A DNA stretch of 64,000 nucleotides from Candidatus Eiseniibacteriota bacterium (GTDB lineage Bacteria > Eisenbacteria > RBG-16-71-46). Under the pieces are notes generated by a model, which was not told the origin of the DNA, did not search any database, and saw only the letters and a list, made by a program, of their open reading frames with translations. This document shows positions 56,192 to 60,066 of this stretch, piece after piece. The stretch's first letter is position 1. The number at the start of each line of letters is the position of its first letter. The stretch covers positions 382,422 to 446,421 of the forward strand of contig JAXLXR010000002.1 of assembly GCA_046327815.1 (NCBI GenBank), in the 5' to 3' direction. Position numbers and translations under genes: made by a program.

Positions 56192-57154
56192 GTGGAACGT
56201 CCTCGCATCCTGATCGCGGAAGACGAACCCGAATTGCGGACCGTGCTGCGCATGCAGCTCGAGCTGGCGGGATACGACGTGTTCGAGGCCGGCGACGGCA
56301 TCGAAGCCGTGCGTGCCGCCGAAGAAACGCAGCCCGACGTGATCCTGCTCGACGTGATGATGCCGCGCATGGATGGTCACGAGGCCTGCCGCCGCCTTCG
56401 GAGGTCGTTCACCACGAAGCACATTCCCGTACTCATGCTCACCGCCTGCGCCGACCTGAACAGCAAGGTCACCGGGCTCGAAGGCGGGGCCAACGACTAC
56501 GTCACGAAGCCGTGGTCGAAGGACGAGCTGCTGCTGCGCGTGCGCAACGCCGTCGCGTGGAGCGCCCAGCAGCGCGCGGCGAGCCCGCTCACCGGCCTGC
56601 CCGGCAACCATTCGATCAACGACGAGATCCGGCGGCGCCTGCAGGGCGGAACGCCGTTCGCGCTGCTGCAGCTCGACGTGGATCACTTCAAGGCGTTCAA
56701 CGACTACTACGGCTACGCGCGCGGCGACGAGGCGATCCAGATGCTCGCGCGCATCCTCACCGAGAGCGTGCAGCGCCACGGCGGCCCGGAAGGGTTCGTG
56801 GGGCACATCGGCGGCGACGACTTCGTGGTGCTCACGAGCCCCGAGTACGCCGAGGAACTCGGCGAGGACATCCTCGAGTGGTTCAACACCTCGGCGCGCG
56901 AGCTGTACGACACCGAGGACCGCGAGCGCGGCTACGTCGAAGTGCTCAACCGGCGGCATGTGGCGGAGCGGTTCCCGCTCATGAGCCTGACGATCGCCAT
57001 GGTGAGCACGGACCGCGTGCCGGTCACGCACCTCGCGGAGCTCATCGACATCGCGCAGGAACTGAAGGCGCACGGTAAGGGCATTCCGGGCAGCGTGCTG
57101 GTCGGCGAGCGTCGCCGCCGGGGCGATGCCGCGGACGAGCGCAGCGTCGCGTGA
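56192..57154 (+). CDS. response regulator: receiver domain plus GGDEF domain with a GGDDF variant signature
   Basis: REC (ILIAEDEPELRTVL...DVILLDVMMPRMDG...TKP). GGDEF domain with RxGGDEF replaced by GHIGGDDFVV. RBS GGGAGCCGGAG before the GTG. Confidence 0.8.
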   Translation: MERPRILIAEDEPELRTVLRMQLELAGYDVFEAGDGIEAVRAAEETQPDVILLDVMMPRMDGHEACRRLRRSFTTKHIPVLMLTACADLNSKVTGLEGGANDYVTKPWSKDELLLRVRNAVAWSAQQRAASPLTGLPGNHSINDEIRRRLQGGTPFALLQLDVDHFKAFNDYYGYARGDEAIQMLARILTESVQRHGGPEGFVGHIGGDDFVVLTSPEYAEELGEDILEWFNTSARELYDTEDRERGYVEVLNRRHVAERFPLMSLTIAMVSTDRVPVTHLAELIDIAQELKAHGKGIPGSVLVGERRRRGDAADERSVA

Positions 57155-57180
57155 GCGACACGAGGAATCCAGGAGACCGC

Positions 57181-59526
57181 ATGGACGCGACGCACACTCA
57201 CGGAGCGAGCCTGCTCGAACTGCCGGGCGAGGCGCTGGCGCTGCTCGCCGAGGCCGTTCTCGCGATGCGCACGACCGGCGATCTCGGCGTGTCGTGGGGC
57301 ATCGCGTCGGCGAACGTGCGCCGCGCGCTCAGTGCGGTGGACGCGAAGCTGCTGCGGCTCGACCGCCGCAGCGGTGCGCTGTTCCTGTACGAGGAGTCGG
57401 GCGTCGAGACGCCCTACCTCGCCGAGCACGGCGGTCCGGTCGAGTGGGTCATGCGCCACGACCGCGCCATGTTCGACGACGGCGCCGCGGGCCCGCACGC
57501 CGCGCGCGAGACGCTGCTGTGGCAGCGGCCGCCGGCCGCGCTCGCGACCGTGCCGCTCGTGGCCGGCAACACGCACTACGGCTTCCTGCTCGTGGCGTTC
57601 GACGCCCCGCGCACCCTGTCGGCGGCGGAGCGCCTGCTCGTGCAGTCGCTCGCGGACGCGCTCGCACTGGCGCTCGAACGGCTCGACCTGCTGCACCTGC
57701 TCGACCAGGAGCGCGCGCGCACCGGCGCGGCCGAACGCCGGCTCACGTCGTCGCTCGACTCGGCGTCGGGCCTCATGTCCATCCTGGCCCACGAGCTGCG
57801 CAGCCCGCTGTCGAGCATCAAGGCGTACACCGAGACGGTGGCCGCCAACCTCGACAACGACCGCGCGCCGCGCCGCCGGTTCCTCGAGGTGATCGAGGAG
57901 GAGTGCGACCGGCTGTCGGGCCTGGTGTCCGACGTGCAGGACCTGTCGCGCATCGAAGGCGGCGAGACCACGCTCCGGCTGACGGCGTGCTCGCTGGCCG
58001 AACTCGGCCGCACCGTGTGCGTGGAGCACGCCGACGCCGCCGGCAAGCGCGGCGTGACGATCGCGCTCGAATGCGAAGGCGACTCGCGCATCGAGGTGGA
58101 CACGGCGCTCGTGCGCCGCGTGCTCGGCAACCTGATCCAGAACGCGGTGCAGTTCTCGCCCGAAGGCGGCACGGTGCGCGTGCGCTTCGCGCTGCGCGGC
58201 GAGGAATGGACCTGCGCGATCACCGACGACGGCCCGCCGCTGCCGGCCGAGGACCTCGCGCTGGTGTTCGAAGGCTTCTACCGTGCGCGCCGCCAGCTTC
58301 CCGGCGGCCAGCCGTCGCACGAAGGCACGCGGCTCGGGTTGGCGATCGCGCGCAGCATCGTGCAGCTGCACGGCGGCCGCATGTGGGCCGAGCAGCCGCA
58401 CGCCGCCGAAGGCTCGCAGCAGGGCGCACGCTTCTGCGTGGCGCTGCCCGCGCGCCAGATCGCGTCGCCGCGCGCGCGCCGGATCGCGCGCCAGACCGCC
58501 GGCCGCGCCGACCTCGCCGAGCTGTTCGACGCGATCGTCGAGATGGTCGCGGCCACGCTCGACGCGAGCATCGTGTCGCTCGTGCTCGTGGACCCCGACC
58601 GTGGCGACCTGTTCCTCGCCGCCTCCGTCGGGCTCGACTCCGCGGGCGTCGAAGGCCGCCGCACCACGCTGCGCTCCGGCGTCGCCGGCGCGGTCGCCGC
58701 ATGGGGCCGCCCGGTGCTGGTCGAGAACATCGAGACGGACCGCCGCTTCCGCCGCCTCAACCACCCCCAGTACCACACGAAGTCGCTGCTCTGCGTGCCG
58801 CTGCGCGTGGAAGGCGAAGTGATCGGCGTGGTGAACGCGAACAACAAGATCAACGGCGAGGCGTTCGAGGAGGACGACCTGTCGCTGCTGGTCATGCTGT
58901 CGGAGCGCGTGAGCAGCGCGATCGAGCGCGCGTGCGCGTACCCGGACAGCCGCCGCGTGGTCGAGGACGCGCTCGAGGCCGTGCGCTGCATGACGCGCTT
59001 GAAGCGTGACTTCTCGCTGGGCGGACGCCGCCAGATGAAGCGGGCCCGTGCGGTGGCGCGCGAACTGGGCATGTCGCCCGCGGACGTGGACGTGATCGGG
59101 TACGTGGCCAGCATCCACGACGTCGGCATGGTGCGGCTGGAGGCCGAGACCGCCCACCCGGGCCGCCTCGACGAGCGCCAGCGCAACGCCGTGACCGCCC
59201 ACCCGGAAGTGAGCATCGAGATCCTGCGCCCGCTCGAGTACCTCGGGGTGGTGCGGGACTACATCCTGGGACACCACGAGCGCTGGGACGGCACGGGTTA
59301 CCCCCGCGGCCTGACCGGCGACTCGATCCCGTTGGGGAGCCGAATCCTGGCCGTGGTGGACGCGTGGGAGAGCATGACCACGCCCCGCCCGTTCCGGGCG
59401 CCGCAGGACGTCCAGCAGGCGGCCGCGGAACTGCGCCGGGAGGCCGGCCGGCAGTTCGACGCCGAGGTGGTGGAGGCGTTCCTGCGGGTGCTGGAGAAGG
59501 AAGGCGACCTGCGGGAAGCCGCCTGA
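57181..59526 (+). CDS. multidomain sensor: GAF, HisKA, HATPase_c, GAF, HD-GYP phosphodiesterase
   Basis: H-box LAHELRSPLSSIKAY. ATPase boxes (NLIQNAVQF, DDGPPLP, GTRLGLAIARSIV). Second GAF. HD-GYP motifs (SIHDVGM, HHERWDGTGYPRGL, VVDAWESMTTPRPF). RBS AGGAGA 4 nt before the ATG at 57181. Alternative GTG start at 57151. Confidence 0.8.
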   Translation: MDATHTHGASLLELPGEALALLAEAVLAMRTTGDLGVSWGIASANVRRALSAVDAKLLRLDRRSGALFLYEESGVETPYLAEHGGPVEWVMRHDRAMFDDGAAGPHAARETLLWQRPPAALATVPLVAGNTHYGFLLVAFDAPRTLSAAERLLVQSLADALALALERLDLLHLLDQERARTGAAERRLTSSLDSASGLMSILAHELRSPLSSIKAYTETVAANLDNDRAPRRRFLEVIEEECDRLSGLVSDVQDLSRIEGGETTLRLTACSLAELGRTVCVEHADAAGKRGVTIALECEGDSRIEVDTALVRRVLGNLIQNAVQFSPEGGTVRVRFALRGEEWTCAITDDGPPLPAEDLALVFEGFYRARRQLPGGQPSHEGTRLGLAIARSIVQLHGGRMWAEQPHAAEGSQQGARFCVALPARQIASPRARRIARQTAGRADLAELFDAIVEMVAATLDASIVSLVLVDPDRGDLFLAASVGLDSAGVEGRRTTLRSGVAGAVAAWGRPVLVENIETDRRFRRLNHPQYHTKSLLCVPLRVEGEVIGVVNANNKINGEAFEEDDLSLLVMLSERVSSAIERACAYPDSRRVVEDALEAVRCMTRLKRDFSLGGRRQMKRARAVARELGMSPADVDVIGYVASIHDVGMVRLEAETAHPGRLDERQRNAVTAHPEVSIEILRPLEYLGVVRDYILGHHERWDGTGYPRGLTGDSIPLGSRILAVVDAWESMTTPRPFRAPQDVQQAAAELRREAGRQFDAEVVEAFLRVLEKEGDLREAA

Positions 59527-59535
59527 CCCAGGCAA

Positions 59536-59606
59536 ATACCGGGCAGGGGGCACTCAAGCTGGCGAAGTGCACGGCCGATACCGGGCACGTATGGGAACAC
59601 CGGGCA
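59536..59606 (+). promoter_or_regulatory. three direct copies of A(T/C)ACCGGGCA in the intergenic region upstream of the CheY-like gene (candidate regulator-binding sites)
   Basis: Copies at 59536-59545, 59578-59587 and 59597-59606, with spacings of 42 and 19 bp. They lie 60-130 bp upstream of the ATG at 59668. Confidence 0.3.
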
Positions 59607-59667
59607 TGGTCCCGGTCGCGTCTTTCGAACGCCGGTCACGGAGTGGACCGGTTCAGGAGGTGAGGGC

Positions 59668-60066
59668 ATGGCGAAGGGCAAGATCCTGGTGGTGGACGAC
59701 GAGATCTACATCGTCCACATCCTGGACTTCAGCCTGGGCATGGAAGGCTACGAAGTCCTGACCGCGCTGGACGGCGAGCAGGCGTTCGAAAAGGCACGCG
59801 CCGAGAAGCCCGACCTCATCGTGCTCGACATCATGATGCCCAAGCTCGACGGCTATGAGACGTGCAAGCTGCTCAAGGCCGACGAGACCACGAAGCACAT
59901 CCCGGTGATCCTGCTGTCGGCCAAGGGCCGCAACGTGGACCAGAAGGTGGGCTTCGAAGTGGGCGCGGACGACTACATCACCAAGCCCTTCAGCCCGCGC
60001 AAGCTGGTCGAGCGCATCAACGCGATCCTGGGGCAGGGCTCGACGCAGCAGCGCATGCAGGCGTAG
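59668..60066 (+). CDS. single-domain (CheY-like) response regulator
   Basis: RBS CAGGAGGTGAGGGC followed by ATG. Receiver motifs (ILVVDDE, LIVLDIMMPKLDG, SAKG, KPF). Confidence 0.85.
   Translation: MAKGKILVVDDEIYIVHILDFSLGMEGYEVLTALDGEQAFEKARAEKPDLIVLDIMMPKLDGYETCKLLKADETTKHIPVILLSAKGRNVDQKVGFEVGADDYITKPFSPRKLVERINAILGQGSTQQRMQA

Follow-up and report, generated by a model that had tools for sequence, protein, structure and literature searches.

Can one block of bacterial genes hold both the means to make and the means to break cyclic di-GMP (c-di-GMP), and do its parts keep the residues that such work demands? The question is raised by three co-oriented forward-strand genes at positions 56192–60066 of a 64,000-nucleotide (nt) stretch of a Candidatus Eiseniibacteriota genome (GenBank assembly GCA_046327815.1, contig JAXLXR010000002.1; the whole stretch is herein referred to as the window), which open reading frames and Pfam domain calls resolve into a receiver-GGDDF (REC-GGDDF) response regulator, a histidine kinase fused to an HD-GYP domain (HK1) and a CheY-like receiver. 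An earlier interpretation of the same letters (herein the sequence-only reading) had seen in them a self-contained make/break switch. Here we report that the three-gene block is a signaling cassette conserved across Eisenbacteria, an uncultured phylum with no known physiology, and that, as far as residues can tell, in this lineage its cyclase-like regulator looks competent and both its kinase and its phosphodiesterase look attenuated. Gene and domain anatomy, residue states, phylum-wide synteny and conservation of a promoter element described below are direct observations; statements on function draw on the residue states, on published mutational data for the HD-GYP enzyme PmGH and on comparative genomics.

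The first gene of the block (56192–57154, GTG start) encodes the 320-amino acid (aa) REC-GGDDF regulator. HK1 (57181–59526, ATG start) follows 26 nt past its stop codon, behind an AGGAG ribosome-binding site at 57171–75, and is an uninterrupted 781-aa protein of GAF-HisKA-HATPase-GAF-HD-GYP architecture; the third gene, cheY (59668–60066), encodes a 132-aa single-domain receiver (Response_reg, 105 bits). The sequence-only reading had these coordinates right throughout, as it did the single polypeptide of about 780 aa combining a kinase core, two GAF domains and HD-GYP, the gap of about 26 nt and the CheY-like regulator downstream, and each domain that it named was recovered by Pfam above the gathering cut-off. 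It had also conceded that a frameshift might have joined separate kinase and HD-GYP genes. That possibility is ruled out: the full-length architecture is common to more than 120 protein clusters (57–91% identity) and, in a scan of one genome per species, to 68 metagenome-assembled genomes (MAGs), the majority labeled Eisenbacteria or unclassified and a few bearing other phylum labels, so that the fusion is not an artifact. In essentially all 68 MAGs the gene order is cutA-tsaD-[REC-GGDDF]-[HK1]-([HK2])-[cheY]-priA, where HK2 is a second kinase paralog present in some loci. Identity across loci is 80–98% for CheY, 38–91% for HK1 and 50–89% for PriA; CheY is the most conserved product of the block phylum-wide, and tsaD and priA fall to approximately 50%. 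For a single-domain receiver, such constraint is unusually strong. A related GAF-HisKA-GAF-HD_5 protein with no detectable HATPase_c occurs in a Desulfuromonadales MAG (L071, 4758–7208); fusions of this type are hence not unique to Eisenbacteria, and this protein offers another instance, whether independent or related, of HD-GYP joined to a kinase-like DHp domain with a decayed ATPase.

Is the first gene a cyclase? Its product, which is 100% identical to an NCBI entry from a MAG named only "response regulator [Candidatus Eisenbacteria bacterium]," consists of a receiver (approximately aa 6–117; Response_reg, 104 bits) with the acceptor D54 and the switch residues T84 and K106, and of a GGDEF-fold domain (approximately aa 130–306) that scores 57 bits for PF00990 (cut-off, 23.8), over profile positions 5–101 only. 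The signature motif (aa 207–211, nt 56810–56824) reads GGDDF, with Asp at the fourth position rather than the canonical Glu, and hence departs from the [G/A/S]G[D/E]E[F/Y] pattern; it does so in all 120 orthologs. It is preceded by His in place of Arg (GHIGGDDF), and in an alignment with PleD the RxxD inhibitory site (I-site) is absent, its position reading GPEG. D162, N170 and D179, which align with D327, N335 and D344 of PleD, are invariant or nearly so. K292 and K296, possible counterparts of the phosphate-binding K442 and R446 of PleD, are invariant and lie at or near the predicted last helix (aa 281–295), within a C-terminal half in which no solved GGDEF domain aligns by sequence past the motif. 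An AlphaFold2 model (predicted local distance difference test score, pLDDT, of 88.4) contains a complete GGDEF fold with an additional helix-hairpin at aa 241–262. The best Foldseek matches of this model are WspR, PleD and DgcR (E 1e-24 to 1e-21 for WspR and DgcR), and the isolated WspR GGDEF domain superposes on it over 189 columns with a TM-score of 0.76. Two-domain architecture and fold are therefore as in WspR and DgcR; these enzymes, however, have GGEEF or GGDEF, an RxxD I-site, Arg before the motif and LxNRR, where the first gene has GGDDF, His and LPGN and lacks the I-site.

The sequence-only reading had correctly recorded GGDDF and the missing RxxD and had called the cyclase activity uncertain; the motif is, however, not a decayed one. 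An exhaustive search with the domain alone returned 711 representative clusters (50% identity) at E<=1e-30, and GGDDF is carried by 145 of the best 150. Their consensus, NPLTGLPGN ... DLDxFKAFNDxYGFxRGD ... FVGHIGGDDFV ... LYDxEDRxRGYI ... FPLM ... ELKxxAK ... GS ... DRR, is found most often in proteins of approximately 310–330 aa that consist of REC-GGDDF alone, from MAGs labeled Firmicutes, Omnitrophica, Nitrospiraceae, Baltobacteraceae and Eisenbacteria; one homolog adjoins a REC-EAL gene and another lies in a FIST-GAF-kinase-REC operon. NCBIfam offered only sub-threshold PleD/DgcR matches, cluster look-ups gave generic names only, and a literature search for "GGDDF" returned nothing on this subfamily. 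On this comparative evidence, GGDDF is the invariant signature of a large, uncharacterized GGDEF subfamily. Since the metal- and guanine-binding residues are kept, the domain is probably a cyclase, and since the I-site is absent, we infer that the first gene encodes a phosphorylation-activated, guanine-specific cyclase without product inhibition. A natural precedent exists in GSU1937 of Geobacter sulfurreducens, the one natural GGDDF enzyme with a published test, which is active in vivo and whose authors argue that the Asp can still serve as the cross-dimer base (PMC8835794), although GSU1937 is a membrane-bound HAMP protein of the Hypr type that carries the Hypr Ser and makes cyclic GMP-AMP (cGAMP), whereas the protein studied here carries the Asp specific for guanine and takes its input through a receiver. 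At least 700 GGDDF clusters from several phyla are labeled diguanylate cyclases in databases despite missing the canonical catalytic Glu, and the activity of a single member would fix the annotation of thousands of proteins.

The opposite pattern is found in the second gene of the cassette. HK1 contains an N-terminal GAF domain (57373–57681; 35.9 bits), an internal GAF domain (58507–58926) and an HD-GYP domain (59029–59469; HD_5, 106 bits), and its aa 439–773, which span the internal GAF and HD-GYP, match PmGH of Persephonella marina (PDB 4MCW) at E of approximately 2e-38 to 7e-38; the second-best PDB match is 5z7c. No more than two of the 121 orthologs depart from the HD dyad (H646-D647) and HHERWDGTGYP (aa 698–708). 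Of the eight metal ligands of PmGH, six (H221, D222, H250, H276, H277 and D305) are retained as H646, D647, H674, H698, H699 and D727, as is GYP, and the c-di-GMP contacts R314/K317 are matched by R736 (113/121 orthologs) and R739 (120/121). The remaining positions are lost. PmGH H189 corresponds to G615 (Gly in 97 orthologs, Thr in 12 and Ser in 9), and HK1 has no His between aa 528 and the dyad at aa 646; E185, the carboxylate ligand of the trinuclear subgroup, corresponds to F611 (Phe, Leu or Tyr family-wide); and K225, the Lys of HDxGK, is M650, a Met in 121 of 121 orthologs. In PmGH, H189A and K225A abolish hydrolysis and E185A lowers it (PMC4159591). The phosphodiesterase of the sequence-only reading is accordingly not a canonical one, the equivalents of H189, E185 and K225 being missing from every ortholog, and in the deepest Eisenbacteria clades HD and GYP are wholly lost from both kinase paralogs with the cassette still present.

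Binding residues that are kept alongside catalytic residues that are lost make, at the level of sequence, the pattern of an enzyme turned receptor, with residual activity possible. RpfG of Xanthomonas offers a near parallel: it lacks the equivalents of the same two ligands, E185 and H189 (PMC4159591), and the Galperin census reports low activity for it and names HD-GYP proteins that are inactive and function via protein contacts. RpfG signals partly through contacts with GGDEF proteins, and the RpfC/RpfG system likewise couples two-component signaling to HD-GYP, but there the domain sits on the response regulator, whereas here it belongs to the kinase protein, and of the two receivers one bears GGDDF and the other has no output domain. 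Unlike PmGH, the HK1 module follows a GAF-HisKA-HATPase core to which it is fused. No part of HK1 is more conserved than its internal GAF domain (NIETDRRFRRLNHPQY.TKS), which matches the cyclic nucleotide monophosphate-binding GAF domains of PDE2/5/10 and CyaB2 and contains a partial NKFDE-like motif (NK-x5-F-x3-D).

The kinase core is degenerate as well. HisKA (57772–57963; 54 bits, with the H204 codon at 57790–57792) and HATPase_c (58099–58455; 83 bits) are both recognizable, and a PDB search matched aa 198–424 to cores of the HK853/WalK type. HK1 of the window has H204, E205, N321, D349 and G351, and the N-box N321 is present in 115 of 121 orthologs. The ATP-lid boxes, in contrast with the canonical DxGxG and GxGxGL, read DDGPP (G1) and GTRLGL (G2). 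Among the 121 orthologs the phospho-acceptor column holds His in 66, Thr in 44, Asn in five, Gln in four, and Ser and Gly in one each, such that the His is replaced in 55 (approximately 45%), with the flanking E, R, P and L invariant. Canonical membership in the GGDEF, HD-GYP and HisKA families fails, in each case, on at least one defining residue set.

The distribution of the kinase degeneracy follows the presence or absence of HK2. HK2 lies between HK1 and cheY in L031 (7320–10084) and in 26 other Eisenbacteria loci (L030–L068) and is absent from the clade of the window, where no displaced copy was found within the 64 kb, only unrelated kinases at 11002, 37517 and 40632. It has an HK1-like architecture, canonical kinase motifs and an HD-GYP N-terminus as degenerate as that of HK1. 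With all loci translated, genomes that carry both paralogs show the canonical H-E-x-x-T, N, DxGxG and GxGxG in both, while HK1-only genomes, including that of the window, have the degenerate lid (DxGxP, GxR), with the exceptions of L050 and partly L051, and approximately half of them lack the His. Kinase degeneracy is hence confined to the clade that lost HK2, and canonical H, G1 and G2 are found only beside HK2 or in L050. Together, these loci form a natural decay series, from canonical kinase through ATP-lid-degenerate to His-less, and from an HD-GYP domain with six of eight ligands to none at all. D54 of the receiver is invariant throughout, which suggests that the receivers are still phosphorylated, possibly by other kinases. 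Two large hybrid kinases are encoded in the window, a MASE1-PAS-GAF-PAS-HisKA-HATPase-REC protein (7543–12171, forward strand) and a CHASE8-HAMP-HisKA-HATPase-REC-REC protein (36575–39631, reverse strand), and are possible alternative phosphodonors for orphan receivers.

Of the 27 two-kinase loci, 22 have the HK2 stop codon 1–7 nt before cheY begins; in the five deepest this distance is 34–45 nt. By ordinary operon logic, this spacing suggests that HK2 pairs with CheY and HK1 with REC-GGDDF. CheY itself has the complete acidic pocket and switch set (D10, D11, D54, S84, Y103 and K106). In the window it is separated from HK1 by a 141-nt spacer, and a locus of intermediate form shows where such a spacer may come from: L051 (7236–7682) has a 411-nt spacer with a recognizable HK2 fragment, ALKVQSADADTVIEA, that includes a promoter element and can still be read as ALKVQSADADT. 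This spacer is an intermediate in the loss of HK2.

The promoter element in question, CAAG-N15-GCCGATA, matches the window exactly three times against 0.4–0.5 expected, with no one-mismatch variants, and all three matches are intergenic, on the forward strand and 57–145 nt before a start codon. They precede the REC-GGDDF gene (GCAAG-N15-GCCGATAA, 56046–56073; CAAG from 56047, -10 box at 56066–56073), cheY (TCAAG at 59554–59558, CAAG from 59555, then N15 and GCCGATAC at 59574–59581) and an ATPase gene approximately 10 kb upstream of the cassette (TTCAAG-N15-GCCGATAC, 46443–46470; CAAG from 46444). The last of these genes (46526–48661, forward strand, 711 aa) encodes a PilB/GspE-type ATPase with an MshEN-family N-terminus and a C-terminal receiver (T2SSE, 412 bits; MshEN, 58 bits; Response_reg, 88 bits). 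Across the HK1-cheY spacers of 36 genomes, CTCAAG-N15-GCCGATAC is invariant, together with the ribosome-binding site AGGAGGTGA, and the element stands 75–147 nt before cheY in all 36 single-kinase loci with a located cheY start. It recurs 100–240 nt before the REC-GGDDF gene in 21 Eisenbacteria loci. The ATPase gene's four nearest orthologs (L083–L086) are likewise preceded by it, with minor changes in the -10 box, and L087 has a weaker variant.

What transcription factor might recognize such an element? Its -35 TCAAG and -10 GCCGATA(A/C) are correctly oriented upstream of genes and fit the boxes of sigma-28 (FliA/SigD/WhiG) promoters, being shared with E. coli flgKL and fliL (TCAAG-N14-GCCGATAA) and resembling P. 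aeruginosa fliC (TCTAAAG / GCCGATAA) (PMC4183435, PMC12784957). We hence regard the conserved cis element as a putative sigma-28 (FliA/WhiG)-type promoter, which would tie the cassette to a motility- or development-type regulon. An Rfam scan of 55900–60300 at E<=1 found no riboswitch or other RNA, a consensus scan found no sigma-70 promoters or intrinsic terminators, folding of the cheY leader is indistinguishable from that of shuffled sequence (z = 0.08) and an inverted repeat after cheY (60083–60136) has no T-run. An extracytoplasmic function (ECF)-type sigma gene (Sigma70_r2 + r4_2) is present at 27558–28199 on the reverse strand of the window; it is not of the sigma-28 type. A literature search on flagella or c-di-GMP in Eisenbacteria gave nothing usable.

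The element is also found inside the HK2 reading frame, approximately 1.5 kb before cheY, in 22 loci (21 two-kinase loci and the L051 relic; the L031 copy is at 8606–8634), where it encodes Leu-Lys-x5-(Ala/Thr/Ser)-Asp-Thr. Within this stretch CTC-AAG and GAT-ACx never vary, and GAT is a rare codon in this genome (GAC 46 and GAT 1 in HK1), which implies that selection acts on the DNA itself. FliA often binds within genes, as at 30 of its 52 sites in E. coli. Given the embedded copies and the L051 relic, the 141-nt HK1-cheY spacer of the window is best read as what remains of an HK2 deletion around its internal promoter, a case of a promoter embedded in coding sequence that survives deletion of the host gene. 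In L064 and L067, of one deep clade, a GCCGATA box directly follows the HK2 stop codon, 44–45 nt before cheY; the position of the promoter therefore differs between clades.

We tentatively propose, with a confidence that falls a little short of evenly balanced, that the block is the Eisenbacteria version of a two-component/c-di-GMP cassette transcribed from sigma-28-type promoters. The receiver of the first gene would be phosphorylated at D54 and form a dimer like those of WspR, PleD and DgcR, whereupon the GGDDF domain would make c-di-GMP free of product inhibition. HK1, its presumed operon partner, would act here less as an ATP-driven kinase than as a phosphatase of the two receivers or a scaffold for them, and its C-terminal GAF-HD-GYP half might either hydrolyze c-di-GMP weakly or sense it in a feedback role. 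CheY would ancestrally have been translationally coupled to a canonical HK2; deletion of HK2 in the clade of the window would have spared the embedded promoter and left CheY an orphan receiver with a promoter of its own. The PilB-like ATPase-REC gene, with the same promoter type, is a candidate output. The DivJ/PleC-DivK-PleD-DivL system of Caulobacter likewise combines one or more kinases with a single-domain receiver and a receiver-GGDEF protein, divK and pleD forming one operon there; PleD is the best PDB match of the first gene's receiver, and the pseudokinase DivL has Tyr for the phospho-His, comparable to the His-less HK1 orthologs. However, PleD of Caulobacter is a REC-REC-GGEEF protein with an I-site and no HD-GYP fusion is found there, such that the likeness is one of analogy only.

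Several observations weigh against this proposal. Within the subclade of the window, purifying selection clearly acts on H204 and on the six remaining HD-GYP metal ligands, a sign that some catalysis persists, and a Lysobacter RpfG without the same His is reported as a robust c-di-GMP hydrolase, according to a citation in bioRxiv 10.1101/2021.11.05.467447. The link between HK2 loss and lid degeneracy coincides with the split of one clade and may hence record a single historical event rather than functional coupling. The spacer of the promoter element is 15 nt in every exact-pattern instance, as opposed to 14 nt in E. coli and P. aeruginosa, and the 64-kb window yielded neither a sigma-28-family gene nor a flagellar one. 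In the N-terminal domain of the ATPase, we saw by eye no obvious c-di-GMP-binding motif of the MshEN type, RLGxx(L/V/I)(L/V/I)xxG; despite the family match, we do not claim this domain as a c-di-GMP receptor.

The strongest rival is the make/break switch taken literally, with HK1 an active kinase for both receivers, GGDDF an active cyclase and HD-GYP an active phosphodiesterase. In its favor are the above-cut-off scores of all its Pfam domains, the presence of H204, N321, D349 and G351 and of the HD, HHE and GYP motifs, the 2e-38 match of the C-terminal half to an active enzyme, the demonstrated activity of a GGDDF enzyme (PMC8835794) and the reported activity of an RpfG homolog lacking the first His. 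The kinase and phosphodiesterase nevertheless lack key catalytic residues: the G1 and G2 boxes are altered, 55 of 121 orthologs do without the phospho-acceptor His, HK1 has no equivalents of E185, H189 and K225, of which alanine mutants of the latter two inactivate PmGH, and the deepest clades lost HD and GYP altogether and retained the cassette. We consider this literal switch unlikely. A more speculative extension of our own proposal, which we rate as decidedly unlikely, is that HK1 is a cyclic-dinucleotide-gated pseudokinase or phosphatase whose HD-GYP domain serves as a c-di-GMP receptor, reading GGDDF output and setting the phosphorylation of both receivers within a sigma-28-type (motility/development) regulon, and that REC-GGDDF proteins form a distinct cyclase class with an Asp base, no I-site and maybe an altered product.

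It is very unlikely that GGDDF and HD-GYP are both inactive binding or interaction modules that sense cyclic-di-nucleotide levels within a non-enzymatic scaffold, comparable to RpfG-GGDEF, PelD and LapD. The non-canonical fourth residue of GGDDF and the His before the motif would suit such a role, as would the absence of a cyclase phenotype for the GGDDF-EAL protein PA3258, the degenerate catalytic residues of an HD-GYP domain that yet conserves GYP and the nucleotide contacts, and the inactive HD-GYP proteins known to work by protein–protein interactions. Against it, the GGDDF domain keeps all of its metal- and base-binding residues and the putative phosphate-binding ones, invariant in a subfamily that spans several phyla; it has no I-site, where inactive GGDEF domains that serve as receptors usually bind c-di-GMP; and REC-GGDDF alone, with no other output domain, is the dominant architecture.

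A separate rival concerns the control of cheY. The sequence-only reading had pointed to three direct repeats upstream of this gene at 59536–59606, and AYACCGGGCA indeed has three copies in the window against 0.21 expected, a number that none of 100 shuffles reached. Copy 1 (ATACCGGGCA, 59536–59545) lies just 5' of the -35 box; copy 2 (ATACCGGGCA, 59578–59587) shares its ATAC with the 3' end of the conserved -10 box; and copy 3 (ACACCGGGCA, 59597–59606) falls in the predicted 5' leader. That three exact or near-exact copies flank and overlap the cheY promoter element within 71 nt is what an operator for a regulator of cheY might look like, but the aligned HK1-cheY spacers of the 36 genomes show the repeats to be lineage-specific. 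Copy 1 is already absent from relatives with 91% protein identity (L001, L002 and L012); the closest relatives keep copy 2 and part of copy 3, of which L001 and L002 retain only CCGGGCA; and other clades have no copies except for a lone copy-2 match in L026. Copy 2 is in part merely the -10 box, and the repeats have no palindromic symmetry. A conserved operator is ruled out by these 36 orthologous intergenic regions, an operator of any kind is highly improbable, and the conserved element is, as argued above, the putative sigma-28-type promoter and not the repeats.

Least probable of all is a GGDDF cyclase whose product is not c-di-GMP but, for instance, some further cyclic di- or oligonucleotide, with the degenerate HD-GYP domain tuned to it, for although the subfamily has invariant sequence features that set it apart (LPGN, GHIGGDDF and the extra YDxEDRxRGY hairpin), a C-terminal half that cannot be aligned by sequence to any solved GGDEF domain, and potential partners among HD-GYP enzymes, some of which are cGAMP-specific (5z7c being the second-best PDB match), the guanine-specifying Asn/Asp (PleD N335 and D344) are conserved, the Hypr-type Ser is absent and one homolog adjoins a REC-EAL gene.

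Elsewhere in the window, three proteins longer than 1000 aa with CARDB, TIG-repeat and alpha-amylase domains (675–3857, 19974–23186 and 23176–26451) all end in an FlgD_ig-like domain, possibly a C-terminal tag that directs their sorting or secretion. Downstream of priA lies a gene with an HNH-endonuclease domain (62304–63194), weak homologs of which are found in L052, L057 and L058, where their position varies and the strand is the opposite one, suggesting that it is a mobile or variable insertion.

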